Assembly: GCA_964421935.1 (NCBI GenBank)
Contig: CAYQZM010000207.1
Span: 5,567-69,566 of the forward strand
Length of the DNA stretch: 64,000 nucleotides
Source of the DNA: an uncultured Rhizobium sp.
Lineage (GTDB): Bacteria > Pseudomonadota > Alphaproteobacteria > Micropepsales > Micropepsaceae
Direction: 5' to 3'
Part shown: positions 1 through 17,605 of the stretch, one piece after another
Position numbering within the stretch: the stretch's first letter is position 1
Layout: each line of letters opens with the position of its first letter
Notes under the pieces: model-generated
Told to the model about the DNA's origin: nothing
Seen by the model: only the letters and a program-made list of their open reading frames with translations
The model's database searches: none
Program-made: the position numbers and the translations under genes

Positions 1-494
1 ACCCCGTGGCCGCCCTGGAAGAACTGCGGAAATGGTTCAGACCCGGCGACAACCGCTTCCAGTTTACCGGGGGGCGGCTACTGCACGCGACCTTTCAAGT
101 CTGCACCCCGGAACTGGCCGCCGCTGCGATGCAGGTTTGCAAGGCATGGAGTGACGATGACATCGAATTTTGCCTCGACGTGTTCGGTAACTATCGCGGT
201 GAGGAGCCGCTGCATGATGTCGCAAAGGCGCTGGTCATGGCTCTGCCGGAAGATGATCGGCGCCTAAGCCGTGTCGCCATCCTTCTGGAAAACACCGGCG
301 TCGTGATGGGCGAATATGGCATGGCCCAGGCCATGCACGAACGCAAGACGCTGATGACGAAATGGCTTGGGGACGACAACGGCAAGGTCAAAACATTTGC
401 CGAGCGCGCAATTCGCCATCTGGACAACCGTATTGCCACGGAGACGCGTGATGCTGACATGCAGAAGGAGCAGCGCAAGCGCAACTACGAGTAG
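1..494 (+). CDS. Hypothetical protein, C-terminal fragment (5' end outside window)
   Basis: ORF 6..494 stays open back to nt 1. Composition is protein-like (...LENTGVVMGEYGMAQAMHERK...KEQRKRNYE). No family motif recognised. Confidence 0.5.
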   Translation, partial: PVAALEELRKWFRPGDNRFQFTGGRLLHATFQVCTPELAAAAMQVCKAWSDDDIEFCLDVFGNYRGEEPLHDVAKALVMALPEDDRRLSRVAILLENTGVVMGEYGMAQAMHERKTLMTKWLGDDNGKVKTFAERAIRHLDNRIATETRDADMQKEQRKRNYE

Positions 495-526
495 CCCACG
501 CTATCGCTTTTGTCCGTCGCTGAAAG

Positions 527-1100
527 CTATGGGCGAGGCGTGCTGACGGCCAGCACCCGGTAAACGCTTGGCCGACCGACGCCGAGATTCTTCGCGATGG
601 CGCTACCTCCCCGTCGCGCGACTTCACTGGGATTAATTGATTTCGGCCCGTCCCTGCAGATGCCCTTGGCCTTTGGGCGGGCCTCTGCGTGGCGCTCCCA
701 ATGGAGAAGCCGCATTAGAAAGCGAATTCTCCTTATCCAAGAAGAGCCCGTATACCCCGTCATTCGCCGCCAATGGACGGCAGCTGATGTCCTCGCTGCC
801 ACGCTACCGAGGCCCGGTGACCACGGTGGAACACGCCTTCCTGGTTGGGCTGATATTGGACATCCGATGTCAACGGTGCGGTCGGTGTCACTCGGAATGG
901 GCGTACCTGTTCTGCATGAGAGCGCCTCAGGCGAGATCTGTACGGTTGCGCGAGCCAACGGGCGGATTTCACTGTCAGGGCTGCGAGCGGAACGTGACGG
1001 TCTATATCTCCACAAGGCGAGAGGGCGAGTTCTGATCGCACCTCCCCTGGCGATCGACGTTCGCAGTACTCCACCGAGAGGTGGACGTAGTTAGGCCAGA
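527..1100 (-). pseudogene. Degraded serine recombinase (resolvase/invertase) remnant
   Basis: The minus-strand frame ending at 527 encodes a resolvase-type C-terminal HTH (AKGICRDGPKSINPSEVARRGGSAIAKNLGVGRPSVYRVLA). Upstream, resolvase-like fragments lie in three different frames over ~570 nt, the size of a resolvase gene: IRPLARAT resembling DRLARST, RPFRV resembling GFRSL, PGRRV, and SRWSTAN resembling RVST. Confidence 0.4.
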
Positions 1101-1355
1101 ACTATCGTTGGGCGAGGCGTTCCTGACCGGGCTCTCGCCCCATGTCCGCTGCCTGCGCAGCGACCGAGTGGGCCGGTCAAGATCGAGCCATGTGGCTATG
1201 GCGCGAACTGGACCTTGAGACCTTGATCTGGACCAGGGGCGCGAAAACATGGTCGATTACGGCTACTGGCGACGAGTGCCCTTCACGATCACAGCCCGCG
1301 AGCAGGCAAAGCCGAAACCCTCCTAGCCCGCAAGACGCAAGCTAGCTCCGGCTCC

Positions 1356-1559
1356 TCAAAAATCGTTGGTGCTAGTCATGACGGCATCGCTATTTAGCCG
1401 CGCCTCGATGCTCTCTAGGTCTCGCAGATGCGCCCAGTAGGGCGCCCCGGCCCCCTGGCTCAATTCCGAACGGCATTTTTCCATATAGAGTTCGATCGCC
1501 TTCTGAAGGGCGATACATTCACCGTCATGCAAGGTCAACCTGTAGGCGTAAGTGGTCAT
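1356..1559 (-). CDS. Hypothetical small protein (67 aa)
   Basis: ATG start preceded by AGGAG (minus strand ...aaaggagatgtaacgATG). Non-repetitive sequence (MTTYAYRLTLHDGECIALQKAIELYMEK...). No family recognised. Confidence 0.45.
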   Translation of the reverse strand: MTTYAYRLTLHDGECIALQKAIELYMEKCRSELSQGAGAPYWAHLRDLESIEARLNSDAVMTSTNDF

Positions 1560-1595
1560 CGTTACATCTCCTTTCCAGCGTATTTGCGCGGTCCG

Positions 1596-1931
1596 CTAGC
1601 CCTTGCGAGGCGAAGGGCGGGACCATCCGCCGGGGCCTCGCTCATACGGACCCTCAAGCCTGTCATACTGGTCCTTGAGTGGCTGCAAGAACGCGATCCC
1701 GTACGCGCCCGAATTGTTATACATCTCGTCGAACGCGGGCTTGCCGCCGCCCAAGAACCGTTGAAAGAGATCAGCGGCCCGGCTTTCATCATACCCGTTG
1801 GCGTACAACCCTCGGCACAGAAGGCTGAAGCCCTGATTACTAAAGACACTTTGGATCTTGTTGGGCGCAACTCCCCGGCGATGAAGCTCATTCGCTACGT
1901 AGTTGGAAAAGAAGAGCTTCTTGAACATCAT
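1596..1931 (-). CDS. Hypothetical protein (111 aa)
   Basis: Directly upstream of and co-oriented with 1356..1559 (36-nt gap). Globular-looking composition (MMFKKLFFSNYVANELHRRGV...). No family recognised. Confidence 0.45.
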   Translation of the reverse strand: MMFKKLFFSNYVANELHRRGVAPNKIQSVFSNQGFSLLCRGLYANGYDESRAADLFQRFLGGGKPAFDEMYNNSGAYGIAFLQPLKDQYDRLEGPYERGPGGWSRPSPRKG

Positions 1932-2148
1932 TTCACCGAAGCGATGCCGGCCCCGAAGAGCAGTCAGCCTTCATCGAGACTAGCTGAGGTGGGGGGCCAT
2001 CACAATGACCCGACGGCCAGCGCGATAAGGCGTCGGCAACCCACAGCATCGTATGGCAACGAAAGGACGCTGGCGGATGCCGCTCCCACAGGGAGAATTG
2101 TTTGAGCCGGAACATTCCTCTCCACGAGCGAGCAAAGCCAAGGCCCTC

Positions 2149-2353
2149 ATGATCCGGGACATCGACATCATTCGAGCTGCGAAGCAGATCATCGACCAGT
2201 TCCCCGATGATCCGGTGATGGAAGCCGCTCAACCTGCGGATGCCGCTTACGAGTTGGGGGACATGTTCAACTTCGACCTCTGGACCCCGCATCACCCAAG
2301 CGGTGGGCGACCTGCTCCGCACAACAAGAAATCCGGACGAACCACTGAACTGA
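2149..2353 (+). pseudogene. Small conserved hypothetical protein, apparently frameshifted (+1 in a C-run)
   Basis: MIRDIDIIRAAKQIIDQFPDDPVMEAAQPADAAYELGDMFNFDLW, then the sensible continuation (T)RITQAVGDLLRTTRNPDEPLN-stop is in the +1 frame after cccc at 2285-2288. The pattern matches small alphaproteobacterial proteins I recall (..W..A..li.qhGddA...A..rAd.l...GD..g...W.rI..Ai.eL.r..P), but I cannot name the family. Confidence 0.4.
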
Positions 2354-2577
2354 GTGCCAGAGACGAAGTCCTAGAACAATCGCGCGCATAGGACCCGGGT
2401 CCAGCCAGTACCCGACCATGCCATGGCTTGCCCTTATGGGGTCCGGTGCGGTTGCGCACATCGTCCCAGCCGCGAGTCATCAATCCCTAGCGCATGGAGG
2501 CGCCAGCAACCCTAGGCTCGGAACGCCGCGAAGCGTCACCTGTTGAGTCGGAAAACAACAACTCACTGGGTAATGGC

Positions 2578-3470
2578 ATGGCATCCGCACGACGCAAAGA
2601 AGCGCCGCCAAAAGCGCGCGCCCTCAATATTCCCGGCCTAGCGACCAGACCAGCATGGCAGGGACACCTCCGGCTATCGCTCGTCAGTTGCGCGGTCGGG
2701 CTTTATACCGCGACTACAACCACGGGCGACATTTCCTTCAATCTGATCAACCCCGCCACTGGGAATCGCATCAAGATGATAACGACCGACCCCGATACGG
2801 GTCCGGTGCCAAGATCGAGCCTGGTCAAGGGTTATGAAATAGAGAAAAACAATTACGTTCTCTTCACCGAGGAAGAAATTCGGTCCGTCCGGCTCGAAAC
2901 AACCAATACGCTTGAGATCGAGCGTTTCGTTGATGCGGACACGATTGACCGTCTTTACTGGGATAGCCCCTACGTTCTGAGCCCGCTCGATGATGGCTCT
3001 GCTCAAGCGTATGCCGTCATCCAGGAAGCGATGCGCCGCACCAATCGGATCGGCCTTGGCCGGGTTGTGATGCACGGTCGAGAGCGCCTCATGGCGATTG
3101 AAGCGCGCGACGCGGGGCTACTGGCTACCTCTCTCAGGATGAGGGACGAGGTCCGGAACACTTCCGAGGCACTCACGAGGGTCCCTCATGGAAAGCCCGA
3201 CAACCAGATGATCGCCATTGCGGAGCAAATCATCGCCCAAAAGGAAGGCCCGTTCGATCCGTCGCAATTCACAGATAGGTATGAGGACGCGTTGCGCGAA
3301 CTCAAGAGAAGAAGCGTGGGCACAAGATTACTAAAGTGGCCGAGCCGGAGGATGTGGGTAATGTCGTCGATCTCATGGAGGCCCTGCGCAAGAGCCTAAA
3401 AGGCGAGGGCTCGCCGAGAGCCAAGCCGAAATCTCCCGCGACCGTGAGCCCGATCAAGAAAAAGAGGTAG
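2578..3470 (+). pseudogene. ku: Ku (NHEJ DNA-end-binding protein) with an apparent 1-nt deletion near the 3' end
   Basis: Ku core motifs are present: WQGHLRLSLVSCAVGLYTA, VKGYEIEKNNYVLFTEEEI, IERFVDADTIDRLYWDSPYVLSP, RIGLGRVVMHGRERL. The frame ends abnormally at 3399 (..ELKRRSVGTRLLKWPSRRMW..). The typical Ku tail KKRGHKITKVAEPEDVGNVVDLMEALRKSLKGEG...KKKR is encoded in the -1 frame from 3309 to stop 3468-3470. Start codon uncertain (ATG 2578 or 2494). Confidence 0.85.
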
Positions 3471-3474
3471 CGTC

Positions 3475-3660
3475 ATGGGCCAGCAACATCACAAGCTGTA
3501 CTTTCCCTATCTTCCTTCGGACCGTCAGGGCTACATCGATTTCTTCAGTGACAACAACACGAACAAGGAGCCAGTGATCTTGGAGGACGGCACCAGCGTC
3601 CAATTCCCCGCGGATTGGACGGATGAAGACGCCGACAAGTGGCGCAAGGGACGCAGCTAG
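3475..3660 (+). CDS. Small protein (61 aa) with C-terminal W-T-[DE]-E-x-A-x-[KR]-W-R-K motif
   Basis: ATG lies 4 nt after the shifted-frame Ku stop. The C-terminus VILEDGTSVQFPADWTDEDADKWRKGRS is paralogous to the C-terminus of ORF 14964..15212. Confidence 0.5.
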   Translation: MGQQHHKLYFPYLPSDRQGYIDFFSDNNTNKEPVILEDGTSVQFPADWTDEDADKWRKGRS

Positions 3661-3998
3661 AGCGCCCCAGCGGCTACCGAGCGGTTTCCATGGACATGGT
3701 CGGTCTGTTGACCAAGAATCGGGGTTCTTCCTTCCCGACATTAGACATGCGATGTCCGCTTTCGCACAGATGGCGACAGGGCAACTGTCAGGGCTCACTG
3801 CCGAGTCGGAAGCGCGATTAGTTGCAGAACTCAAGAAGCAAGCCGAGGGCCTGCGCAGCGCCGCCCGGAACCGATCTTGCGCAGGAAGACAAAACATGAC
3901 CTTCAAGCGAATGATCCGGCACCGAAAAGGCCGTTTCCCGGTTCTTCCCGAAAGAGTCGTGGAAAGCAGCCGCGAATAAGCTGACGGTTACCTTCGCT

Positions 3999-5306
3999 CT
4001 ATGGCAGTGAATTTCCGGGTTCCGCTCCGCCACCGCTTTGAGGCGAAACGAATTCACCATTCTCCTGATTTCTAATGAGAGTCAGCAGCCGAAGAAATTC
4101 TTCGTTCTTCGTATTGCTCTTCCACATATTCACAAACTGACACACAACCTGAATGTTGCCGGGCGCGTAGTGACCATCGCTGTCAATGCGATCTGGTGAC
4201 GGCAGAAGGTTCTTGTCTGAATCAAAGTCGCCATGAAAATGAAATGCTATCCCCGTGAGTGCACAACGGTCTCCCTGAATTTTCATTCGCTCACGCAGGT
4301 AAGCCTCAAGCTCCTGATCTGAGTCAAAGCCGAGATCCTTCACCTTCATCTGCATATTTCGGGTCACGATCTGACCACGCGACTGAGACACGGTATTCAG
4401 TATACTCAACCGCATGTTCGTTATCGAGCGTTCGCGCGCTCCTAGCACCCGTCCGTCGTCCCGCCCCTTTTGGGTAACCGTTTCCGCTCCCTCCGGCACG
4501 CGCTTGAGAAGCGTCGCGAATATCCAACAGAATGAATGCGCGTCCACAAGGCGGACATTCTTAAGGTCAGCGACTTCTTCGAGGGCTAGACGCACTTCAC
4601 CGAGGATTGCATTGAAGCGTTTGTAGTTGTCCCAGTTGCAATTTTTCAGAGAGGTGAACCGAACACCAAGTTCGGGGAAGACCCTGTCGAAGCCGGTCGG
4701 TTGGATCGGCATGAACCGGCTCATATCTTTGAGAAAATATAGGTACGCGGATAGCGTATATTTGCGCCCCGTGAGTTCGCTTAGTCTATCGAACAGTGCC
4801 CCTTCGTCGGTGTCGGTCCGATACAACTCGAACAAAGCATTTTCGATCGCGCGCCGCGAACCTTGATCCTGTTGGGCATCCAAAAGAGCGCGATGCTCGC
4901 GACTCAAATGGCCGTATCGGTTCTGCCAGAACACGAAATTGTTCGTGAGCCCGCCGGGACGGTTATCCTGAATCTCTATCGCAGCAATCGTTCGGTCCAG
5001 AATTCCACCCTTGCCAATCGTATTATGTTGCCAATTAGCCGCGTCTAGCTTGGATAGGGCAAGATCGCGCAATTTGGGCTTATAACCCTCCCAAACCGCC
5101 GCAAGACCTTCGTTAAGGCTGGTGAATTCGTGCCCACTGTAGATCGCTACAAGTTTCTGAAAGCGATTGAATGCCGTTCGGAAACCAGGTTCGTCCAGAG
5201 CCATCACGTCATTCCCTAAACCTAGATTGTCCCGAGAGCCCCGCTTTGGGACTACGGGCGCAAACACCTTTCTGGGTCTTGATGCCGCTTCCTTTGCACA
5301 CTCCAA
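3999..5306 (-). CDS. HNH-like (His-Me finger) nuclease-domain protein with large uncharacterised N-terminal domain
   Basis: The C-terminal ~70 aa are DRCALTGIAFHF...NLLPSPDRIDSDGHYAPGNIQVVCQFVNMWKSN, a C-x-x-T-G ... DRID ... GN-x-x-x-x-C-x-x-x-N-x-x-K pattern like HNH/His-Me finger variants. The N-terminal ~330 aa has no recognised family. Start uncertain: TTG 5306 or ATG 5204 with AGGGAA upstream. Immediately downstream of the helicase gene on the same strand. Confidence 0.7.
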   Translation of the reverse strand: MECAKEAASRPRKVFAPVVPKRGSRDNLGLGNDVMALDEPGFRTAFNRFQKLVAIYSGHEFTSLNEGLAAVWEGYKPKLRDLALSKLDAANWQHNTIGKGGILDRTIAAIEIQDNRPGGLTNNFVFWQNRYGHLSREHRALLDAQQDQGSRRAIENALFELYRTDTDEGALFDRLSELTGRKYTLSAYLYFLKDMSRFMPIQPTGFDRVFPELGVRFTSLKNCNWDNYKRFNAILGEVRLALEEVADLKNVRLVDAHSFCWIFATLLKRVPEGAETVTQKGRDDGRVLGARERSITNMRLSILNTVSQSRGQIVTRNMQMKVKDLGFDSDQELEAYLRERMKIQGDRCALTGIAFHFHGDFDSDKNLLPSPDRIDSDGHYAPGNIQVVCQFVNMWKSNTKNEEFLRLLTLIRNQENGEFVSPQSGGGAEPGNSLP

Positions 5307-5321
5307 AACTGGAATGTTTCG

Positions 5322-8300
5322 CTAGGCGTGCTGGTGCTCACCCTTTTTCTCAATGTTGAGGACCATCCATTTATGAACCTTGCCGTCAAACTCGAATTCG
5401 ACCTCGTCGTCCTCTTCCGCCCCGAGAAGAGCGACCCCGGAAGGATGTCGAACGGATATTATGCCGAGGCTCGGGTCGTGCCGATCCGCAGATAGCGTCA
5501 GCACCCTTACCCGATTGTCGTCGCTAACTTGGACCTGCACACGGCTTCCCACTTTAACCACGACAGCTTCCTCGGTCGGAAGGTGACTGTACGCCTCCGG
5601 TGCACGATCAGACGCATCTTTGCCGGGTCTACCGCCATCCTCCGTTGCGTCTTTCGCAACGGGATATTTGCGAAACTCTGTCCATACATTCGGCAACCGG
5701 TCATTTCCTATCGGTTCAATGCCCAACAAAGACAGGCTGCCGACCAAATCATCAATGCAACCCTCAGGATCAATTCTGTAGCTAGACCCCCAGCAGCGCC
5801 AGAAGCGCCAGCCGACGCGCTCCATCACTCGTTGGCGTGCCAAATCCTCGGCCCACTTCTCCGGGCCATGGTATTTGTCTCCATCAAGCTCGACCGCAAG
5901 CCGGCGATCCTCCCGACCTTCCACGACCAGATCAATCGAGTATGGCCCGACGCTGACCTGTGGCTGTGCACTGTATCCCAGCTTAATTAGGCGCGTGAGA
6001 ACGTCACGCTCAAAGGCCGAATCGCACAATGCCAGCAGATCGCCGGTCGGCTGCGAGCGGCCTGCCATAGCACTCTTGAAGTGGCGTAGCACTTTTGCCT
6101 TTAGATCGTCCGGCTTGAGCATTTCTTCCGTCACCGAACGGAAGAGATATTGGCGATCACGGGCGCGTGACAGCGCCACATTAAACCTTTGTTGAAGCGC
6201 CAACGCCGTTTTAGAGGTGCAGGTCTGAGGGCACTCAACCATGCTGAGAAGAACAATATCGCGCTCTTTCCCTTGGAAGATTGCGGAATCGCCACATGCA
6301 ATATCGTGGCGAACATATGCCTCCTCGCCGATCCGCTTTAGAAGCAAGGATTGAATGAGAGCGGCCTGTTTTGCGCCGATGAGCGAGATTATCCCTATGT
6401 TGCGGCCTGCCATCGCTGGATCGGCAACAATCCCTGCAACCTCATCAACAATCGCCTCCGCCTCGGCCAGATTCCGATTGCTCTTGTCCTTTTGGCCGTT
6501 GGTGACGTGAACATCGATTAGGGGCGGGGAAAGGCGTTCCGAAGCCTTCGGGAGGCGAACCGGCACGATTTCTTCCGTGTAAAATTGAAAGCTAAAGCGG
6601 ATGATCGGTTCGACACAACGGAAATGCTCCCGGAGCATGATGCGTCGGCCCGGAAAGCAAGCCAAGGCTAATTCATAGAGCGAATTGCCCGGAAGCATAA
6701 GCGCGCCGAAATGCTGACCATCGAGATAGTGCATTCTAAGGGAGCGAATTTTCTGCTCTTCGATGAAAGCCGCAGTGGGACTGACCTGCTTATCGTCGCC
6801 GACCACGAGTACCTTCTTCGCCCGTAAGATTGCCGGAAGAGCGCTAATATCGGATTGAGACGCTTCGTCAATAATGACGAGATCGAAGGAGCAAAGGGTC
6901 GAAGGCAGGCTCTCCGAGATGCGCCAACTTGGCATAATCCAGCATGGAACAGCGGCGTAGGAGGATTCCATAGCATCGCGGGCATCCCTCCGCAGACGCG
7001 AAGCGCTTTTTCCAGTGCCTTTGCCAATCTTGCGGATCGCCGTGAGAAACATCTGCAAGGCGGCATCAATTTTGCGGGTGATCCGAGCTTTAAGCGTCAA
7101 CAATGTCCTTAGGCGAACGACAGATTGGAAGAGACGATGTATCTCGTCGTCCGCAGCGAGTCTGTGTTGATCAAGTTCCCGCAGGCGGGCACGTCCATCA
7201 ATGGCGCGCAAGTGCGCGTCGGCTTGCGCCCATACCCATGCGCCCTGCCAATCCTCCGGTGTCCATGGATCATCCACTCCGGTGACAGGCATGGTGCGGA
7301 GTGCATTTCCCCAATGTGGCGCACCGGATTGAGAAACCACATCTGCTACATTTGCAACGGTTTCCAAAAGGGTCCGCAGACCGCGGATGCGATCAAGCTC
7401 CGCTAGGAGGGCTCGCCAGTTGTCGGAGATGACATTCGGGGAAAGGTCAGGCGATCCCACTTCACTGTTTAGGAACTCCTTCAAGTGGCGCGAAATGCGT
7501 CCGCTCCGAGTCTCCAACTGAGCCTTCGTATCATTGAGCTTCGCACGAGTAATCAGCAAGCGATGTCGTGAAATTTCCGAACGAATGGCATCGGCAGCTT
7601 CGAGGGCGGCTTTCTCGCTTTTTGTGACTTCTACGGCGTTTAGCCCAAAACGAAACAGACGGGGCGACTCCGTCAGCACCATTGGGATATGCAGCCGGAT
7701 CGCCTCGGCTATCAAGCTGACATTCTGGGCGTGCAATTGCAGGGCACGCGCTGCGTCATTGAACTCCGATGGAACGTCCGGAAGCGAAAACTCCGCGCGG
7801 AGAGCCCGCCACCGTGCCAACGTGTCTGACATATTTCGTTGCCAGACCAACACGTCTAGGACAGCCTTCCATTGAACCACCGACTGGGCGGGCACGCCAA
7901 GGATGCGTATTGAATTGAACGCAGCCCGCAATTCGGACTGACCCCAGCCGATCAAGCCAAACGGCTTTTGACCAGCACACGCCCGCTCGACCGCGGAAAC
8001 GAATTCCGGAATTGCGTATGCGCCTTCCGGAACTGAGACGCCATAGGATGTAATTTGGGTCCGCTGCCGTATGACCTCCCGCATCTCCGCAAAAAGTGTT
8101 GCCAAGGGGCGCACAGATTCCGCGTCCATCCCGTTGCGCTGCCACTCTGCTAATATGGTACCCAGCCACTTGTGCGCCGCGCATGATCCTTGGACTGCTG
8201 CCACCGCTTCCACGGCTGATAAAAGAGCACCTGCTCTCGCCAACGCATCGGCCTCGGACGATGACATGACCGGCGCGTTGGCGTCCCGGTCGCGCTCGAT

Positions 8301-10295
8301 GCGCGCGGCGTTCGCCAAATCTTGGTGGATAGCTCCCATGGCAGCCGGGTCAGGTAGGTCCGATGTGCTGGGCAAGTCCGCGCCAATATAATCAAGGTCG
8401 GAGCCAAGTGCTTTGCGCGCTGCACGGGCGGCGTGAATTTCCTCTGGGCCAAATTGCGGTTTTCCAGCCTCCGAAAAAGCCGGCCTATCAACAAACCAGT
8501 CATAGCGGTCGCGATCTCGAACAATACGTTCGGCAAGCTCAATGGGCAAAATTCCATCGGTGTCTTTGGTCGCATCGACCCGCCGAAGATGTTTATCGGC
8601 AAATGCACGCATTTCGGCATCGATTTTGGTGATGCGGTGTTGGAGTTCAGTTATGCGCCCTTCGCTGTCGCGGACATCGCGCTCCATGCTCCGCGTGTCC
8701 AGCGACGCAATGCGTGACGCAAGCACATTAACTGTCGTCTCAAGTTGCTTGAGCCCCTCTCTTTCGGAGGTCAGCAAGCTGATTACGAGGTCTCTTATCC
8801 CTTCTGGGATTTGATCCCGAAGCACTGCAAGTGCGCCTTCGCTTTTGGAGGTGACAAGAACGCGACGCCCTGTGGCTAGATAATGACAGATTATGTTTGC
8901 AATGGTGTGCGTCTTCCCGGTGCCGGGAGGACCTTGAACAACCACTCCCTCTACACCCGGATCCTCCAGACGCTGCACGATTGCGATTTGCTCTTCATTG
9001 AAGGCTTTCGGAAAGAAAAACTGGGACTGGGAAAGCTGCCCCTCATTTGAACGGGATTGCTCGTATCCCGCGCTCGCAGCCATCCCTAGCGTGCCGAAAG
9101 CGCCGAGGGAGGTTGTGTATGTCTTTTCATCTGATGGCGAAGTTACGAGCGCCACAGCCGGAGCCGGCAGCGTTTCAGCAGATTCGACCGCCTCCCTCAA
9201 ACGCATCAAGTCGGCAGTGAAAAAATTCTCTGATCGCGGTCGTGCGTAAAGCGCCCAAGTATCAGTGAGAACGAGGTTTGGGCCAGCGGGCGGTACAGAC
9301 CTATCATCCGGTGGCACCGCATCGGGGTGGTATCGACCGCTTTTATCAAACTGCGCGCAAGCATAACGAAGAACAGGCGTATAGGTATCTTTGACGAAAG
9401 GAGAAAATTCATCCTCAATGACGCTACTGGTGAAATGTTCTCGTGCGAAGCGAGCAACTAAGTCGACGCCGGGGTTTTCCATGGCGTTGTAAGGCTTCAA
9501 GGCCAAAAACGGATCAAGACTTCGGGGCCTTACCAGAATGGCTCCGGCTTCATCGAGTTCCAGTTCGACCAGTTGCTCGATGAGCGGGTGATCCAATTCA
9601 TTTGGTGGCAACTTCCATCTCGCGATCCCCATGCCCCAAACGACCTCCAGGGGACGCTCCGCCCCTTCAAGCTTCAAGGCTTGTTGCAGGCCGAATACAC
9701 GTTCATAGATGTCTATAGTTTCGCGGCGTGGTTTTTCAGCTAGCGCCCACTGCGGCCACGTTTGGGTGACATAGGTCTCAACCTGCGCCTTCGCGTCCGG
9801 GAAGCGGTCGATGCGAAAAATAACATCGCACGAATCCTCGCCCGGCTTGGGCTTCAAAGTTTTCGATATATCCGTGGGATCGATTGTACCTGCCGCGACG
9901 AGCTTGGCAGCTTCTGTCGCGCTTATCACGGATGTGCGAAATGTCTCGACGAGCGGCTCTTTGAAAGGATCACGTCCGACCGTGAGCCAATCCTTCGCTT
10001 CCAGAGGGGGCTCGGGAGGATCGGTTCGCCGAAGACGGTCGATTTTTAGATAGACTACTCCATCCGCGTCTTTGATGTCGTGCCGTATTCCAATCCGATT
10101 GCGTAGGTCCTGTTCCGTGAGAACGAGATTGCTATAGCTCGACACTGACCAAACTGGCTTGTCTGCCATTTCGATCAACACCCGCACATAGTCGATAAGC
10201 TGGGACAAGCTCCGCTGTTCTTGAGAGAGCGGCGCTGCGTCAGAAATTTCCTCGGACGAATTCATAACGCCGCGTCCCCCTCGACTATCATTCAC
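5322..10295 (-). CDS. Giant SF1 (Upf1-like, DUF4011/AAA_11/AAA_12-type) helicase fused to a DUF559/Vsr-like PD-(D/E)xK nuclease and a GreA/GreB C-terminal-like domain
   Basis: Walker A [14 protein letters not shown] (~8907-8933). Motif II [9 protein letters not shown] (~6858-6880), then [33 protein letters not shown] and [10 protein letters not shown]. Nuclease module YSIDLVVEG...[37 protein letters not shown] (~5700-5990). The tail [22 protein letters not shown]...[37 protein letters not shown] aligns with the GreA C-domain. Alternative start ATG 10265 with GAGGGGGA upstream. Confidence 0.9.
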   Translation of the reverse strand: [1657 protein letters not shown]

Positions 10296-10689
10296 GATTC
10301 GCTGACTCTAGAAAACCTGATGGCAGGATACTAGCTCAAGGTAATTACTAGATCACTCTCGATCAGTCTCGGACTATCCAGCTTAACCTGAATTGTATCC
10401 CGTGTCCTCTGGTCTGCGAAATCATCGGAAGTCTCACCTGTCATGCATTCGATACACGAAGGAAAACTTCCGTGACACACGCACACCGGACCGCGACATT
10501 TCCGTACACGGAATTGCACGGTATGGTCGCTGCCGCAGGCCCGCATTGACCAAAACCACCTCAGCGGAAGTGGACGAGCGGTTCGCAATTTCGGTCTATT
10601 GAGTCATGCCCTGAACTGGCGAAAGTGTAAGAAACGGGATAGCTTGGCAATTGTCACTTGCGTCTCCCTCGTTATCAAGCTGGCTGTCC

Positions 10690-11814
10690 ATGACAATTAA
10701 GCTTCTTCACACCGCTGACTGGCAGATTGGCAAAGGCTTCGCCAACTTCGAGGGGGATGCAGGAGCGCTGCTGCGCGCTCAGCGGCTTAAAACGGTAGCG
10801 CGAATCGCCAATATCGCAAACGAGCAACGAGTCGATGTAGTGCTCGTGGCGGGAGACGTGTTCGAGACGAACGCAGTGGCTGATGACACGCTGCGGCGCA
10901 CATTGAACCACATGCAATCGTTCAAAGGGCCGTGGGTCCTATTGCCGGGCAACCACGACGCGGCACTCGCCGACAGCGTATGGACTCGCCTTACTCGCAT
11001 CGGATTGCCAGACAACGTGAAACTCGCAGTCCGGCCAGAGCCACTTCTGCTAATGAATGACCGGCTTGCGATTCTACCAGCGCCACTCGCGCGGCGTCAT
11101 GAGGCGACAGATATAACGGAATGGTTCGACACGGCGGTCACGCCGACCGGTGTCTTCCGGGTTGGTCTCGCTCACGGCAGCGTGGCGAACCGCCTGCCTC
11201 AAAAGTCAGATGCGCTGAATATGATCTCCGACACCCGCTCGGAAACGGCAAAGCTCGATTACCTTGCGCTGGGGGATTGGCATGGGACGCTGGAGATCGC
11301 GCCCCGCACTTGGTATTCCGGAACACCGGAGCCTGAGCGCTTCCGCAACAATGAGCCGGGTAACGTTCTGATGGTTACCCTCACCGGGGCCGGAAGCGCG
11401 CCTATGGTCGAAGTGGTCCCTGTGGGCCACTTTAGCTGGAAACAATTGGACCACACGGTCTCCAGCACTGATGACGTGGTGGTTCTCGATGGTCTGCTCG
11501 CCGCTGAGTCGCAGGCTGATCGGCTTGTCGTCAGTCTTACCGTCCGAGGAATAGTCGATCTCGCTACCCGGAGACTCGTGGAGGAACTGATAAACCGCCA
11601 TCGTGCGCGTTGCCACGTCCTCCGCACAGACGACGATGAGCTTGTAGGGGTGCCGAGCGATCAGGAGCTTGATCGCATTGATACAATGGGTTTCGTCCGC
11701 GCTGCCATCGATGAACTTCGGATCAAGGCAAACAACGCCAGCGATAGCGAGAGTCAGGTCGCGCGCGTGGCCTTGCAGAAGCTCTACCTCGAACACTTGC
11801 GGCTGGGTGATTGA
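10690..11814 (+). CDS. SbcD/Mre11-like metallophosphoesterase (DNA repair exonuclease family)
   Basis: Calcineurin-like phosphoesterase motifs are in order: LLHTADWQIGK, VLVAGDVFE, LLPGNHDAAL, LAHGSV, ALGDWHGT. The stop overlaps the next gene's start (ATGA at 11811-11814). The ORF track starts at 10651; ATG 10690 fits the family N-terminus. Confidence 0.8.
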   Translation: MTIKLLHTADWQIGKGFANFEGDAGALLRAQRLKTVARIANIANEQRVDVVLVAGDVFETNAVADDTLRRTLNHMQSFKGPWVLLPGNHDAALADSVWTRLTRIGLPDNVKLAVRPEPLLLMNDRLAILPAPLARRHEATDITEWFDTAVTPTGVFRVGLAHGSVANRLPQKSDALNMISDTRSETAKLDYLALGDWHGTLEIAPRTWYSGTPEPERFRNNEPGNVLMVTLTGAGSAPMVEVVPVGHFSWKQLDHTVSSTDDVVVLDGLLAAESQADRLVVSLTVRGIVDLATRRLVEELINRHRARCHVLRTDDDELVGVPSDQELDRIDTMGFVRAAIDELRIKANNASDSESQVARVALQKLYLEHLRLGD

Positions 11815-14468
11815 TGCAGATTCGCAAGATCGAAATACAGAATTACAAAAAGCTGATCGGGCCTGTTTTGATTGATAAGATCGGCGACGGAATCACCGTG
11901 ATCGCCGGAGATAATGAGGAAGGCAAAAGTACGCTTCTCCAAGCTCTTCGGGCAGCATTGTTCGACAGACATAATCTCACGGGGGACGCAGCGGATGCGA
12001 TGCAGCCCTTCGGACATCGTGTCCGTCCTGAGATCGGGCTCGAATTTGAGATCGGGGGCATCACCTACAGGCTCAAGAAAGGCTATTGCCAAAAGCCCCA
12101 TGCTGAACTCGTTATGCCGAACGGCGTCGTCCTGACGGGACCTGATGCCGAGGAGAAGCTCCAGGAGCTACTGCGCTTCCGCCCACCCGGAAAGGGCCAA
12201 GGGAAGCCAGAACAGCATCATGGCGTGTTCGGCATGTTCTGGATCGAGCAGGGCCGCGCTTTCAGCCCGCTCCCTCTAAGTCCGGACAACCGAACCACAT
12301 TGATGGGCGCGCTCGAAAGCGAAGTCGGCCAAGTGCTCGGCGGCGCGAGAGGCCGGACCCTAAAGGATAATATTGCCGCGCGTTATCGCGTGGTCTTCAC
12401 CGATGGCGGGAAACCCCGTGGCGCCTATGCGGAGGCGATTTCTCTGGCGGAAAAGCTGGAAGCGGAAATTGGCCCCAAGCGAGAGCAGCTAAAGCAATAT
12501 GAGGACAAAGTAGACGAATTGGCCCGAACGCGGGATCGGCTGTCTGGATATGAGAAGGAAGGGCGACTGGCCCGTGCGGAGGATGGTCTCAAGACCGCCC
12601 AAGCGAAGCTCGATCATATTGGCAACCTCGAAAACAATGTCGCCGCTGCTGAACAGGCATTTCGCCTAGCGGAAGCTGATGTCCGGTCCCCGACAACCGC
12701 CGTGACGCAGCGCGATGCTCTTATCGAACGTGAAAATAAAGATCGCGACGAGGCAGGCAGTTTCAATGTTCCACTAAAGAGAACCGAGGAAGCCGTTACG
12801 CGCTTGTCGGAAGACTTCACGGTGCGCGCTGATGCGCTCAAGGCCGCTGAGTCCATGTTGGATGAAGCGAATAAGAGACTTCTTGCAATTGACCAGACGA
12901 TTGAACGCCGGCGTTTGACCGCTGAGCGGGATCGTCTGGCGGCTGCGCTTGACGCAGCGAAAACTGCCGACGGCACCGCCCGAGAAGCCCGTGCCGAATC
13001 GTCGGCTATTAAAGTGGATGCCGCGGATCTGAAACGACTCCGGACTTTCGATCAGAAGCGGATTGAGGCAGAAGGCGCACTTGCCGGATGCTCTACGCTG
13101 ATTCAGTTTCAGTTGAAAGCGGATAATCCTGTAATGGTAGGCGGCACCGCAGCCCCATCGTCCGGCGACGTGTCCATAACCGATCCAACGAAGTTGGAGA
13201 TCGTAGGCACAGGCACCATCACGATTATTCCTGGCGGCGAAGAACTCTCGACGAAACGCAGGAACGCAGAAACTGCCCGCGAGGCATTCCATAGTGCTCT
13301 GCAGAAACTCGGGTGTGCCTCGCTCGCGGAAGTGGAACGCTCGGTGCAGGAACGCCAAGCTTACGATGCCGATGCGGACAAGTACGCGGAAGTGTTGAAA
13401 ATTCATGCACCCGAAGGTGTCGATAAACTCAGTGAACAACTGTCAGACGCTATCGCCTTAATAGCGAAACTTCCCGAGGCCGAGGATGATAGCGGCTTAG
13501 ACCGGGCCACCGCATTGGCAGCGCAACGAGAAGCCGACCAGCGAGTCAAGAGTGCGCGGACGCAGCGTGATACTTGCCAAGCGAAACTTGGCGAGGCTCA
13601 GCAGGAGTTGGCGAAGCAGCGAGCGCTCAGCAGTTCAGCCGCCCAGAAGGCCGCAGGCACCGCCGCCGAACTCGAACGGGCGCGTCAGGAGAAGGCCGAT
13701 AATGTGCTGCGCGGGGAATTGGCGACCGCGACAAATCAGCTAACTCAGGCGAAAGCCGTTCTTGAACAGGCTCAGCGGCTGCTCGCCGAGGCCGATCCCG
13801 AAGTAGCGCGGCTATCCTTTGAGAGTGCGCGCGACGGCCACAAGGCCATTCGAGACGAAATAGATAGATTATGCACCACGACCGAAAGGCTTGCCTTGGA
13901 ACTGCAATTGCTTGGGCAGCAAGGGCTTGGTGAAGCTATTCAGGAACTTGAGGGCCAGCTTGCCCTCGCAATAGCGCGGCGGGATAGCGCGAAGAAAGAT
14001 GCCGACGCCCTCAAACTTCTCTACCACACCCTTGTCCGTGCAGAGCAGCACGCTCGCGAAGCGTTCCTCGCCCCGGTGCAAAAGCGCGTGCAGCCCTATT
14101 TGAGACTACTCCTCCCGGAGAGTGAACTCGTGCTTTCCGAGGATGATCTTGGCGTCACGGCACTCCGGCGCAATGGGCAGGACGAGCCGTTTGAATCCCT
14201 CAGTGTAGGAGCGAGGGAACAGGTTGCCGTTCTCACGCGTCTAGCGTTCGCCGATTTGCTGCGCGAGCGAGGCGTCGTCGCGCCGGTTGTTCTCGATGAT
14301 GCGCTAGTGAATAGCGATCCGCGCCGTTTCGAGCGCATGTTGCTAGCGATCCGACGAGCGGCGAAGAATCTTCAAATCATCGTGCTGACCTGTGACGAGG
14401 CGGATTGGGTGCAGGCGGGCGCGCCGATGATCCGACTCCAAGATTGCATCGGCATGCGGGCAAACTAA
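11811..14468 (+). CDS. SbcC/Rad50/YhaN-like coiled-coil ABC-type ATPase (885 aa)
   Basis: N-terminal Walker A VIAGDNEEGKSTLLQALR. A ~550-aa Ala/Glu/Leu/Arg-rich coiled-coil middle. C-terminal signature/Walker B LSVGAREQVAVLTRLAFADLL...APVVLDDALVNSD...IIVLTCDE. Confidence 0.85.
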   Translation: MMQIRKIEIQNYKKLIGPVLIDKIGDGITVIAGDNEEGKSTLLQALRAALFDRHNLTGDAADAMQPFGHRVRPEIGLEFEIGGITYRLKKGYCQKPHAELVMPNGVVLTGPDAEEKLQELLRFRPPGKGQGKPEQHHGVFGMFWIEQGRAFSPLPLSPDNRTTLMGALESEVGQVLGGARGRTLKDNIAARYRVVFTDGGKPRGAYAEAISLAEKLEAEIGPKREQLKQYEDKVDELARTRDRLSGYEKEGRLARAEDGLKTAQAKLDHIGNLENNVAAAEQAFRLAEADVRSPTTAVTQRDALIERENKDRDEAGSFNVPLKRTEEAVTRLSEDFTVRADALKAAESMLDEANKRLLAIDQTIERRRLTAERDRLAAALDAAKTADGTAREARAESSAIKVDAADLKRLRTFDQKRIEAEGALAGCSTLIQFQLKADNPVMVGGTAAPSSGDVSITDPTKLEIVGTGTITIIPGGEELSTKRRNAETAREAFHSALQKLGCASLAEVERSVQERQAYDADADKYAEVLKIHAPEGVDKLSEQLSDAIALIAKLPEAEDDSGLDRATALAAQREADQRVKSARTQRDTCQAKLGEAQQELAKQRALSSSAAQKAAGTAAELERARQEKADNVLRGELATATNQLTQAKAVLEQAQRLLAEADPEVARLSFESARDGHKAIRDEIDRLCTTTERLALELQLLGQQGLGEAIQELEGQLALAIARRDSAKKDADALKLLYHTLVRAEQHAREAFLAPVQKRVQPYLRLLLPESELVLSEDDLGVTALRRNGQDEPFESLSVGAREQVAVLTRLAFADLLRERGVVAPVVLDDALVNSDPRRFERMLLAIRRAAKNLQIIVLTCDEADWVQAGAPMIRLQDCIGMRAN

Positions 14469-14498
14469 TAGTTGTAATATTCTAGGGACCGATTGAGC

Positions 14499-14627
14499 TC
14501 AAACCGTCCGGCGTCGCACGTGGACCTGGATGCGATAGCTGTCAAACTTCACTTCATGGACCCACTGCGGGCCGTTCGGGATAACATCGGATAGTGTCGC
14601 CAGCTTGGGATCAATGAAGCCGGGCAT
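14499..14627 (-). pseudogene. ligD: Truncated ATP-dependent DNA ligase LigD (first 42 codons only)
   Basis: The minus strand encodes MPGFIDPKLATLSDVIPNGPQWVHEVKFDSYRIQVHVRRRTV-stop. This matches the N-terminus of the LigD ligase domain, including adenylation motif I (K-x-D-G-x-R, here KFDSYR). Similarity ends ~30 nt from the SbcC-like stop codon. Too short for the ORF track. Confidence 0.6.
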
Positions 14628-14787
14628 CTCTGCCCCGGGTCCGGGTGACGGTCCTGGAGGCTAGCAGGTGCTTCGCGCGCATGGCAGCGACTCAGTGGCG
14701 GGAGCCAGAAAATGGCCCGCGTCCCGATCTCGGGAACCCCGCGATTTAACTCACGTTGGTTCTGATGGAGAACCCAGGGAGATTGCC

Positions 14788-14967
14788 ATGGCTACCAATG
14801 CACCTGCAGGTGATGGGCATCGCAACGGCGCCGTCCGGAAACGCACGCAGTTGAAGACCAAGGTGCAGGGCGAAGAGCGGTTCGTGAAGCGCAGCAAAGC
14901 GACCGGGCAGTTCATGGACCAAAAGGAGGACAGGACCAAGTTCAAGGGCGTCCGTCGCGAGAAGTGA
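14788..14967 (+). CDS. Small basic hypothetical protein (59 aa)
   Basis: ATG 14788 preceded by GGAGAACCCAGGGAG. Sequence MATNAPAGDGHRNGAVRKRTQLKTKVQGEERFVKRSKATGQFMDQKEDRTKFKGVRREK. Stop overlaps the next ORF's start (GTGA). Confidence 0.4.
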   Translation: MATNAPAGDGHRNGAVRKRTQLKTKVQGEERFVKRSKATGQFMDQKEDRTKFKGVRREK

Positions 14968-15212
14968 CAGGGCAGGAACGCAGCCTTCAGCCCCACGGCC
15001 ACACGTCCGACTGCCCGGACAAGGGTAAAGGCGAGGAATGCGCCGATTCTGCAGGCAACCATACGGACATCTTCTGTGACGGATGCCACGAGTGGTTTAC
15101 CGAGCCCCAGGTCCTGCGCAACGGCTCTGATATAGCCTGGCCCTCGGGGTGGACTGAGGAACAAGCCGGGCGTTGGCGGAAGGACCACCATCTAGAGCGC
15201 CCGTCTGCTTAG
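14964..15212 (+). CDS. Small Cys-containing protein (82 aa) with C-terminal W-T-E-E-x-A-x-R-W-R-K motif
   Basis: Four Cys (DCPDKGKGEEC...FCDGCHEW). The C-terminus QVLRNGSDIAWPSGWTEEQAGRWRKDHHL is paralogous to that of ORF 3475..3660. Confidence 0.45.
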   Translation: MTGQERSLQPHGHTSDCPDKGKGEECADSAGNHTDIFCDGCHEWFTEPQVLRNGSDIAWPSGWTEEQAGRWRKDHHLERPSA

Positions 15213-15221
15213 GCTGGCGGC

Positions 15222-15910
15222 GTGAATATTGCGACCTTCAACATAAACAATGTCAACAAGAGGCTCGCGAACCTGCTCGCTTGGCTCTCGTCCGAGAGTC
15301 CCGATGTGGTTTGCCTACAAGAGCTGAAGTCGGAGACCCGTAGCTTCCCCATAGCGGCCATCGAAGACGCCGGTTATCACGCCGTATGGCAGGGCCAGCG
15401 CACCTGGAACGGTGTGGCGATCCTGCCCAAAAGCAGCCAGTCCTGACGCGCCGGGCACTTCCTGGCAACAAGGATGACGATCAGGCCCGATACATAGAAG
15501 CCGCGGTCTCGGGCGTTATCATCGGGTGCATCTATTTGCCGAACGGCAATCCACAGCCTGGGCCGAAGTTCGACTACAAAATCTCTTGGTTTGATCGACT
15601 CATCAAGCACGCTCGGAGCCTAGACAAGGAGGGGCTGCCGATGGTTCTCGCCGGAGATTTCAACGTCGTGCCCGATTTATCCATCGACATTTATCCGACG
15701 CGGTCGTGGGATAAGGATGCACTGACCCAGCCGCAGCCCCGCGCCCGGTTCGCCCTTCTTCAACAAGAAGGCTGGCTCGACAGCCTGTGGGCCAAACATC
15801 CAGGTGAACGCCTGTACACATACTGGGACTACAAGAGGCAGCGTTGGGAAAGGAATGGGGGCCTGCGACTGGACCACCTCTTGCTCAACAAACCACTGCG
15901 CAAACGGTTG
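15222..15910 (+). pseudogene. xthA: Exodeoxyribonuclease III (Xth) remnant, frameshifted and lacking its C-terminus
   Basis: N-terminus MNIATFNINNVNKRLANLLAWL...VVCLQELK...WNGVAIL stops at 15446. The continuation KQPVLTRRALPGNKDDDQARYIEA...YLPNGNP...VLAGDFNVVP...RLYTYWDY...GLRLDHLLLN is in the -1 frame, with the shift at cccaaaag (15426-15433). No SDHAP-type C-terminal motif follows; the frame runs into the integrase ORF. Confidence 0.75.
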
Positions 15911-16051
15911 TCCGCGCCGCCCACAAAGCAGGGTCCCCTCCTACCAGCGTCGAATGCCACCCCGACGGCAGGATCGTTTTGTGCTTTGGTCAGCCCCCGG
16001 TCGATGCGGAGGACGTTCTCGACCGTGAGCTCATGGAGTGGAAGCACGGAA

Positions 16052-17086
16052 ATGCCAATGGTTAAAATCAAAGGGAGCCCCGTAAAGGTCCGGTCGAAAG
16101 GCCGCGACTATTGGTATGCATGGCGGAAGGGACCCCGGCTCTTGAGCGAGCCGGGGTCGCCCCAGTTCTTGCAGGAGCTCGCGGATGCCATAGCGGCCCG
16201 AAATTTGCCCGCCGGTCCCGATAAAATTGCTGTACTGGTGGCCCAGTACAAAGCGAGCTCAGATTTCCAGGACCTTTCCACCTCGACCAAGGACCTCTGG
16301 TCGCCCTGGCTGGACAAAATCAGGGATCACTTCGGGAAGCTCAGCCTCCGTCAATTCGACCGCATCACGATGAAACCGGAGATCAGGCGGTGGCACTCTT
16401 CTTATAAAGCGACACCCCGAGCCGCTGACACTGGACTGCAAGTGCTGTCCCGAGTGCTCAGCTTCGGTATCTCGGAGGGCAAACTGGCTACCAACCAGTG
16501 CGGGGAGATTGAATACCTGCACCGCTCAGACCGCGCGGACATCATATGGACGCCGGATGACCTCGCGATCCTGCTGCCCCATGCCTCGCCAGAAGTGTCC
16601 CAAGCCGTACGGCTCGCTGCGCTGACCGGCCTACGACGGGCCGATCTGTTTAAGCTGGCCTGGAGCCATGTTCACCTGGAGAGAGGCTACATCGAGCTCA
16701 AGACCAACAAGGGCCAAGGGAAGCGGACGGTGCTGATCCCGCTCTATGATGAACTGCGGACCCTTATCGAGAGCCTGCCCAAGAGGGCCGCGACGGTTCT
16801 CACGAGCTCGAAAAAGCGGCCCTGGACGGGGGACGGATTTGGGTCGTCCTGGTGGAAGACCCTGCAGGACGCTGGAATGGGCGGAACTGAACTCCGGTTT
16901 CACGACCTCAGGGGGACTGCGGCCACAAACTTCTTCCGGGCCAACTTTACCAACCGGGAGATCGCCGAGACCTTGGGCTGGGCCGAGGAGCGGGTCGAAC
17001 GCCTGATAGACCGCTACGTCAAGCGGGATGAAATCATACGGGACCGAATCCGCCGGATGGACACGACAAAGCGCCAGACAGCCTAG
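16052..17086 (+). CDS. Tyrosine recombinase / phage-type integrase
   Basis: C-terminal catalytic-domain pattern: LAALTGLRRADLFKL, ELRFHDLRGTAATNF, LIDRYV. Lies directly next to the 3' end of the tRNA-Gly gene. The ORF-track entry 15386..17086 fuses it to the xth remnant. Confidence 0.9.
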   Translation: MPMVKIKGSPVKVRSKGRDYWYAWRKGPRLLSEPGSPQFLQELADAIAARNLPAGPDKIAVLVAQYKASSDFQDLSTSTKDLWSPWLDKIRDHFGKLSLRQFDRITMKPEIRRWHSSYKATPRAADTGLQVLSRVLSFGISEGKLATNQCGEIEYLHRSDRADIIWTPDDLAILLPHASPEVSQAVRLAALTGLRRADLFKLAWSHVHLERGYIELKTNKGQGKRTVLIPLYDELRTLIESLPKRAATVLTSSKKRPWTGDGFGSSWWKTLQDAGMGGTELRFHDLRGTAATNFFRANFTNREIAETLGWAEERVERLIDRYVKRDEIIRDRIRRMDTTKRQTA

Positions 17087-17093
17087 CTGCCAC

Positions 17094-17125
17094 GAAGCCC
17101 GCCCGGCAAGGCGGGCTTCTTTGTT
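17094..17125 (+). terminator. Rho-independent terminator after the integrase
   Basis: gaagcccgcc-cggcaa-ggcgggcttc (perfect 10-bp stem) followed by tttgtt. Confidence 0.65.
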
Positions 17126-17200
17126 CCGGGTCAGAACGGCCAGAAGAACAAATTCTGCAAAACCGACTGCAAAACCGTTCTGGGGATTTCAGCTAAGTGC

Positions 17201-17274
17201 TGGAGCGGGTGAAGGGAATCGAACCCTCGTATGCAGCTTGGGAAGCTGCCGTTCTACCATTGAACTACACCCGC
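17201..17274 (-). tRNA. tRNA-Gly (anticodon CCC)
   Basis: The reverse complement is GCGGGTGTAGTTCAATGGTAGAACGGCAGCTTCCCAAGCTGCATACGAGGGTTCGATTCCCTTCACCCGCTCCA. It folds as a cloverleaf: 7-bp acceptor stem, D arm GTTC/GAAC, anticodon stem GCAGC/GCTGC with loop TTCCCAA, T-loop TTCGATT, and encoded CCA. Confidence 0.9.
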
Positions 17275-17356
17275 AGAGGCGCCTTTTGGCTCCTTTTTGG
17301 CTCAGTCTTGTACCAAGGGGCTGATTCGTGGGTCAATCGGCCATTGGAGGGGAAAG

Positions 17357-17605
17357 ATGGCTGAATATGACCGCCTGTTGGCCGAGGCCAAAGCGCTCGG
17401 TATCCCGACCAATTCCCAGGTCTACAAGCCGCGGTCTGACGCCTGGACCGAACTTCAGATCACGGAATGGGAGCTTCATCGCCGCATTAAAGAAGAAGAG
17501 CGACATCGGCGAGAGCATAAACTTTGGATCGTAGCCGTCATTTCCGCGGTCGTGTCTGTTCTTTCGGCTCTCGCTGCGTGGGCGGCAGTCTTTGCCCATC
17601 GATGA
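17357..17605 (+). CDS. Small membrane-anchored hypothetical protein (82 aa)
   Basis: ATG preceded by GGAGGGGAAAG. Charged N-terminal part, then a C-terminal TM segment LWIVAVISAVVSVLSALAAWAAVFA. Confidence 0.45.
   Translation: MAEYDRLLAEAKALGIPTNSQVYKPRSDAWTELQITEWELHRRIKEEERHRREHKLWIVAVISAVVSVLSALAAWAAVFAHR

Follow-up and report, generated by a model that had tools for sequence, protein, structure and literature searches.

A Gre-factor C-terminal domain on a Hhe-like helicase-nuclease points to a possible connection of such enzymes with transcription

Among the bacterial helicase-nucleases that consist of a single protein, Hhe is the best point of departure for the gene discussed here. Hhe is a DUF4011 anti-phage helicase-nuclease (NCBIfam NF042953, PADLOC Hhe; cut-off 2000 bits), and the PhageMaP preprint treats hhe as a single-gene helicase-nuclease defence system, for which it names candidate triggers and counter-genes and makes indirect suggestions on how Hhe acts; the T7 candidates for the trigger lie in the class II cluster g1.4-g2 and g2.8 (10.1101/2024.10.10.617714). 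Gre factors, whose C-terminal domain the present protein shares, bind the β′ rim helices of RNA polymerase (V673-E685) via their globular domain, and binding is lost upon the GreA S121P exchange (PMC7527559). In GreB, too, the rim helices are bound with high affinity by the globular domain (PMC7749165). Here we describe a gene that brings the two together. It is located at 5322..10295 on the reverse strand of a 64,000-nucleotide stretch of DNA (hereafter the window) from an uncultured Rhizobium sp. of the Micropepsaceae (assembly GCA_964421935.1, contig CAYQZM010000207.1, positions 5,567 to 69,566), and it encodes a Hhe-like helicase-nuclease that ends in the C-terminal domain of GreA/GreB (Gre-C).

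The tail of the protein is a genuine GreA/GreB C-terminal domain by profile, by sequence search against the PDB and by predicted fold. It comprises residues 1579-1649 (5349..5561; residue numbers follow the maximal frame of 1657 codons, and all parts of the protein lie on the reverse strand) and is separated from the stop codon by a mere 8 residues. PF01272 covers it from profile position 5 to 76 of 77 with 39.4 bits, well above its gathering score of 26.9 (E=6e-10). A profile built on the nuclease and tail of 34 family members retrieves E. coli GreA (1grj) from the PDB sequences at 6e-5, with weaker matches to Rnk and Gfh1. In an AlphaFold model of residues 1418-1657, the predicted local distance difference test (pLDDT) score is 96-97 across the tail, and the 14 best Foldseek matches in the PDB consist entirely of GreA, Rnk, GreB and Gfh1, one of them being a GreA/Gfh1 chimera. 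The alignment with Rnk (3bmb) extends over 76 columns with 38% identity and a root-mean-square deviation of 2.7 Å; also by NCBIfam models, Rnk is the closest family and GreA the second. A Gre-like tail that aligns with GreA and would be recognized by PF01272 had been proposed in an initial annotation, made by a model from the sequence letters, and this proposal holds.

The most conserved element of Gre factors, the helix motif ISxxSPxAxxLxG, reads IISVRHPSGVALLG in the present protein, so that the pattern I-S-x-x-x-P-x-G/A-x-A-L-L-G is retained. The equivalents of GreA S121, P125, L130 and G132 are kept as S1614, P1618, L1623 and G1625, and among 107 family sequences the proline is found in 88, the leucine in 98 and the glycine in 91. 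No other part of the tail is as well conserved as this helix motif, to which a role in binding has been ascribed. The domain is also under purifying selection: compared with a relative of 93% identity, the ratio of non-synonymous to synonymous substitution rates (dN/dS) amounts to 0.05 for the Gre domain, with 5 non-synonymous changes as opposed to 22 synonymous ones; the gene as a whole gives 0.10 and the linker ahead of the domain 0.30. The N-terminal coiled coil of Gre factors (PF03449) gave no Pfam match in the protein, where linker and nuclease precede Gre-C instead, and with the NCBIfam model for GreA the protein reaches 26 bits, far below the cut-off of 139.

Upstream of the tail, the protein unites a split Upf1-like helicase and an MTES_1575/DUF559 nuclease in one polypeptide, as Hhe does. 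Helicase domain 1A begins with a segment (residues 433-515; 8751..8999) that is recognized by Pfam AAA_11, AAA_30 and AAA_19, shows 82% mean identity to homologues and contains the Walker A motif GPPGTGKT (residues 455-462; 8910-8933), whose motif I columns are invariant. It is followed by an insertion of ~585 amino acids (residues 516-1100; 6996..8750) that the alignment to the NCBIfam model ProA crosses in one stretch and that occupies the same helicase position as in Hhe. The remaining core (residues 1101-1390; 6126..6995) matches AAA_11 and AAA_12, finds IGHMBP2 and Sen1 among the PDB sequences and carries motif II, DEASQ (residues 1143-1147; 6855-6869), ~680 residues from motif I; both motifs are invariant in 107 aligned homologues. 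AAA_11 (residues 433-511 and a second stretch) reaches 63.7 bits and AAA_12 (residues 1204-1381) 53.3 bits, with a cut-off of 27 for each. As the solved structures nearest by sequence are those of Sen1, Upf1/Nam7 and IGHMBP2, the motor is an Upf1-like helicase of superfamily 1B (SF1B). The nuclease (residues 1428-1519; 5739..6014) is of the Vsr/DUF559-type PD-(D/E)xK class, as evident from the Pfam match to REase_MTES_1575 (100.2 bits against a threshold of 38.2, E=7e-29), an additional match to DUF559, the fold of the DUF559 protein 3hrl and of I-Bth0305I (3r3p) as Foldseek matches, and the residues D1455, E1469, D1471, H1476 and Q1488, which are invariant among the aligned homologues. Both the helicase with its widely separated motifs I and II and the nuclease had, like the tail, been recognized correctly in the initial annotation, with coordinates right to within a few bases.

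The fold search with the nuclease also lists proteins of the large subunit of the Toxoplasma mitoribosome (chains of 9i05 and 9g6k); these matches may, as we presume, reflect RAP-type domains.

Between nuclease and Gre-C lies a flexible linker of ~55 amino acids (residues 1521-1575; 5571..5735) with pLDDT values <50 at residues 1539-1574. Its mean identity to homologues is 32%, and its length in these varies from ~20 to ~130 residues.

The N-terminal domain (residues ~20-391; 9123..10238) adopts a mixed alpha/beta fold that is specific to the family (AlphaFold pLDDT 82) and shows 51% mean identity to homologues. Its model gave no significant match among PDB folds (best E=0.086), and the first 430 residues of the protein and of two distant members gave no Pfam match at E<=1. 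The resemblance to DUF4011 (PF13195) that had been suggested for this region finds no support: hhalign against a profile of 120 DUF4011 N-termini returned a probability of 1.2%, and one Hhe N-terminus showed no similarity to the family profile. In a genuine Hhe from a Klebsiella plasmid, DUF4011 is detected at residues 26-305 with E=2.7e-37. The sole parallel to the N-terminus of Hhe is thus positional, namely a domain of similar size and placement.

As stated in the initial annotation, the maximal open reading frame (ORF) runs uninterrupted for 1657 codons from a GTG to the stop codon at 5322-5324. However, the true start is likely the ATG at 10265 (residue 11), which is preceded by a Shine-Dalgarno-like GAGGGGGA motif and would yield a protein of 1647 amino acids. 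A public protein collection contains a sequence of this length, with the start at ATG 10265, that is identical letter for letter. It shares a 90% cluster with a protein from a Pseudomonadota metagenome-assembled genome, and one copy at the Joint Genome Institute (JGI) carries an automatic product name.

How close, then, is the protein to the named defence systems? With Hhe it shares the layout of a single large polypeptide in which an N-domain of ~400 amino acids precedes a Walker A motif at around residue 450, motif II comes only after a huge insertion, and AAA_12, the MTES_1575/DUF559 nuclease and finally a C-terminal appendage complete the chain. Identity to a Hhe annotated by the Prokaryotic Genome Annotation Pipeline (PGAP) is 29% over residues 1117-1524, and both lack a partner gene and are carried by mobile elements or plasmids. 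The protein is nevertheless not a member of Hhe, as it scores below the cut-off and is without DUF4011: its N-terminal domain is not detectably of that family, and at the C-terminus Gre-C takes the place of the Hhe tail or DUF3320. There is, however, a closer relative of Hhe that also ends in Gre-C (P0335); it is a true DUF4011 protein that aligns end-to-end with the Hhe model up to the nuclease (1164 bits), and then continues into Gre-C. The best-scoring named models for the present protein are ProA (NCBIfam NF058533) and the PADLOC candidate PDC-S37 (4.8e-59). ProA aligns in a single stretch over residues 450-1521, that is, the helicase with its insertion plus the nuclease, whereas the N-terminal domain and the tail lie outside the alignment to these models. 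Our literature searches found no paper describing ProA.

With regard to the other half of the comparison, the globular C-terminal domain is alike in sequence and fold to that of GreA/GreB, Rnk and Gfh1, Rnk being the closest. In contrast to GreA/GreB, the protein has neither the N-terminal coiled coil nor its acidic tip, and whereas Gre factors are 16-kDa proteins, Gre-C here constitutes the last 5% of an enzyme of 1650 amino acids. HelD, an NTPase that recycles RNA polymerase in Firmicutes and Actinobacteria, is likewise an SF1 helicase-like protein with a Gre-like module, and this module engages the secondary channel of RNA polymerase (PMC7749165). The fold match between HelD and part of the present protein is weak (6wvk_H, E=0.076 in Foldseek), and the two differ in several respects. 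The Gre-like unit of HelD is complete and N-terminal and reaches into the channel with its long coiled coil, and its motor is UvrD-like (SF1A) and nuclease-less. The present protein lacks both the N-terminal Gre-like coiled coil and the UvrD-like NTPase; it has the globular domain only, at the C-terminus and on a flexible tether, and an SF1B motor of the AAA_11/AAA_12 type. Sen1, Upf1 and IGHMBP2 share with it the helicase motifs and the AAA_11/AAA_12 profiles, but differ from this bacterial protein with its giant insertion in domain 1A and its fused endonuclease and Gre-C.

The tail is widespread among the relatives. A protein search returned at least 3129 of these, and the best 120, all full length and 46-93% identical, come from Pseudomonadota, Nitrospiraceae, Acidobacteriota and Desulfobacteraceae. 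Gre-C is present in 110 of them; the chains of the remaining 10 extend no further than the linker, or stop short of it, and are apparently truncated. In ~29 of the 120, the chain extends past Gre-C through a disordered stretch into zinc ribbons or DUF3320. A scan of one genome per species yielded at least 582 relatives, and among the best 80 of these the tail is found in 20, while ~10 carry DUF3320 or zinc ribbons in its place. A quick neighbour-joining tree of the core, calculated without bootstrap, places the tail in one large clade that includes the present protein and in adjacent deep branches such as Microvirga arabica and Rhodopseudomonas rhenobacensis, which implies some losses of the tail and one isolated gain. 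The initial annotation had named DUF3320 as the usual C-terminal domain of such proteins, which proved right, and had suggested that a Gre-like ending is unusual, which it is not: a large clade, the DUF4011 protein P0335 and automatic JGI product names all show that the arrangement is neither rare nor unique.

A profile of the tail alone gave 203 matches at E<=1e-10 among 1.84 billion protein cluster representatives. All 46 informative matches of at least 230 amino acids either have the helicase-nuclease core upstream or are fragments that begin at the start of the Gre domain or just before it, and the short matches are C-terminal fragments with motifs of the linker or the nuclease end; no other architecture bearing this tail was found among the best 150 matches. 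Within the superfamily, we further found two Gre-C domains in tandem (P0242) and Gre-C followed by DUF3320 (P0371, P0243). Together with P0335, these architectures indicate that Gre-C has moved between lineages of the superfamily. The C-terminus of these enzymes is hence a swappable module, with Gre-C, DUF3320, zinc ribbons or nothing following the nuclease, and Gre-C is a recurrent, exchangeable choice across the Hhe-like superfamily. Phage genomes returned just two partial metagenomic matches, both tail-less, and the family is essentially absent from them.

Among further C-termini, those of L035 and P0096/P0105 carry paired CxxC zinc ribbons (weak matches to Zn_ribbon_Top1 and DZR), and that of L082 is a small beta-rich domain with no family match.

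The surroundings of these genes vary. Seven homologues on long contigs have no conserved neighbour, and their loci variously contain integrases, resolvases and numerous transposases. Other elements seen there are a group II intron, a toxin-antitoxin pair of the AbiE type, fragments of Mrr, a terminase and a gene resembling a relaxase. Full-length relatives are found on plasmids or megaplasmids of Microvirga ossetica (tailed), Variovorax, Sphingobium (named as a DUF3320 protein), Ralstonia and Acinetobacter.

In the window, the helicase gene lies between a bacterial Ku gene of non-homologous end joining (2494-3399, forward strand; 232 bits with TIGR02772, for which the cut-off is 150) and a divergent pair on the forward strand (10651-14468), which consists of a calcineurin-like phosphoesterase resembling SbcD/Mre11 (10651-11814) and, overlapping it by 4 nucleotides, an 885-residue SMC/Rad50-like ATPase (11811-14468). 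The SbcD/SbcC-like pair also flanks the 93%-identical homologue (L001); as a conserved partner it was rejected, the other related loci being without the pair save for a weak SbcD-like match (28% identity) in L013. Its PADLOC matches (LmuB, GajA and similar) cover the N-terminal ~50-100 residues only. An ORF of 435 amino acids (3999-5306, reverse strand), which starts 16 nucleotides downstream of the helicase-nuclease gene, has no Pfam, NCBIfam or PADLOC match and is absent from all 90 related loci; it too was dismissed as a conserved partner and is either an orphan gene or a non-gene. Further away, a truncated ExoIII (Xth positions 70-230) is in frame with a tyrosine integrase in one ORF (15386-17086, forward strand) that adjoins a tRNA-Gly(CCC) gene (17201-17274, reverse strand), and the two may mark the border of an integrated element. 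No att-like repeat was found within 1-17400 of the window, and the guanine-cytosine content is slightly lower at 4-11 kb.

From our point of view, these data are best accounted for by a stand-alone, Hhe-like helicase-nuclease borne on mobile elements that would serve as an anti-phage or anti-plasmid effector and be recruited via Gre-C to the β′ rim helices of RNA polymerase, an interpretation that we favour tentatively and with somewhat less than even confidence. Given that the C-domain of Gre factors binds these helices, a tether to RNA polymerase is the natural inference, whereas the defence role is extrapolated from the mobile-element contexts and the relation to Hhe, ProA and PDC-S37; what the enzyme would cut and what would trigger it we likewise infer. 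In this scenario, the Upf1/Sen1-like SF1B motor would translocate on nucleic acid, the Vsr-type endonuclease would cut DNA, and Gre-C on its disordered tether of ~55 residues would dock the enzyme at the rim helices at the mouth of the secondary channel, the site also used by GreA, GreB, Rnk, Gfh1 and DksA. Because the tail is devoid of the Gre coiled coil and its acidic tip, stimulation of transcript cleavage is not expected. The tail would solely recruit or park the enzyme on RNA polymerase, in competition with other secondary-channel factors, such that the enzyme could act at transcription complexes, for example on transcribed invading DNA, on R-loops or at stalled or hijacked polymerases. 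With the candidate T7 triggers of hhe in mind, the T7 protein gp2, an inhibitor of the host RNA polymerase, provides a lead and nothing beyond that.

Several points weigh against this interpretation. With the Hhe model, the protein reaches 162.5 bits of the 2000 needed (residues 1106-1524 plus a second stretch), compared with 2744 for a genuine Hhe, and with ProA 206.7 bits against a cut-off of 1500; as it falls below both, the defence role is extrapolated from distant relatives. The tail is accessory, as ~50 of the best 80 of the at least 582 genomic relatives stop soon after the nuclease and manage without it. The positions of GreA N123 and S124 are occupied by R and H, unlike in Gre factors. 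The neighbours in the window, Ku and the SbcCD-like pair, are of the DNA-repair type, and one homologue (L004) is located amid plain housekeeping genes. Lastly, GreA seems to depend on its coiled coil as well as on its globular domain to bind specifically (PMC7527559), and an isolated Gre-C may consequently bind weakly.

One could go further and speculate that a whole clade of Hhe-like immune helicase-nucleases is tethered to RNA polymerase by a captured Gre-C, with the polymerase as a surveillance platform for a transcription-coupled immunity, a broader proposal that we regard as possible but doubtful. The enzyme would then ride on or sample transcription complexes, and its nuclease would be released when the polymerase is found on foreign DNA, is stalled or is hijacked by a phage factor. 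DUF3320 and the zinc ribbons would, by the same logic, be docking adaptors for other host machines.

A different role, in housekeeping or stress-related genome maintenance coupled to transcription and with no immune effector involved, appears unlikely to us. Here, a Sen1-, HelD- or Mfd-like motor on RNA polymerase would clear stalled polymerases or R-loops, and the Vsr-like nuclease would nick for repair. This would agree with a helicase core nearest to Sen1, Upf1 and IGHMBP2, with Ku, the SbcD-like and Rad50/SbcC-like genes and the ExoIII fragment as neighbours in the window, and with RmuC next to another homologue (L090), and HelD sets a precedent, being helicase-like and engaging RNA polymerase with a Gre-like module (PMC7749165). 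However, Ku and SbcCD are unconserved as neighbours beyond the 93%-identical relative, the phyletic spread is patchy with unconserved neighbourhoods, mobile-element genes and plasmids, the nearest named relatives are defence proteins, and swapping C-termini fit conflict systems better than core repair.

We consider it similarly improbable that the Gre-like tail binds no host RNA polymerase at all and instead serves a Hhe-like defence enzyme by sensing a phage protein or acting as its decoy, by binding another partner or as a module for autoinhibition or oligomerisation. The phage protein would be one directed at Gre factors or at the secondary channel; the other partner could be nucleic acid or the RNA polymerase of a phage. 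The tail shares its position with DUF3320 and zinc ribbons and co-occurs with them or stands in tandem, and such exchangeable and co-occurring modules would suit a variable sensor or adaptor. Several positions of the helix motif are unlike canonical Gre factors, and the coiled coil that contributes to RNA polymerase binding in these (PMC7527559) is missing. Yet conservation within the tail is highest in the very motif to which binding has been ascribed, and the carriers of the matched solved domain, GreA, GreB, Gfh1, Rnk and HelD, all bind RNA polymerase (PMC7749165). That the likeness to Gre factors arose by chance, from composition or through faulty annotation, with the tail being a meaningless extension, could be argued from the pairwise BLAST match to GreA, which spans 46 residues only at 35% identity, but is ruled out by the Pfam score above the curated cut-off, the independent profile search that retrieves GreA from the PDB sequences, the confident fold with Gre-family proteins as best matches, a conservation in >100 homologues, down to ~36% overall identity, and the purifying selection on the tail.

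Automatic public annotation, in the form of JGI product names, already records the domain combination. Our full-text searches found no paper that describes or interprets Gre-C fused to a helicase-nuclease, which is weak evidence that none exists, as most subscription journals lie outside their coverage.

Overall, the sequence and predicted structure of the domain described here suggest that enzymes of this class may be connected with the machinery of transcription. The mechanism of Hhe-type single-protein helicase-nucleases is poorly understood, and a conserved, selected domain whose known relatives all bind the rim of the RNA polymerase secondary channel offers a testable handle on where such enzymes act. 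Since the tail is present in cultured strains, namely Microvirga arabica, Microvirga ossetica with its megaplasmid and Rhodopseudomonas rhenobacensis, such experiments are feasible. If a tether to RNA polymerase holds true, the short list of motors with a Gre module that is headed by HelD would gain a nuclease-armed enzyme borne on mobile elements, and the swappable C-terminus suggests that a general adaptor logic may apply to the superfamily.

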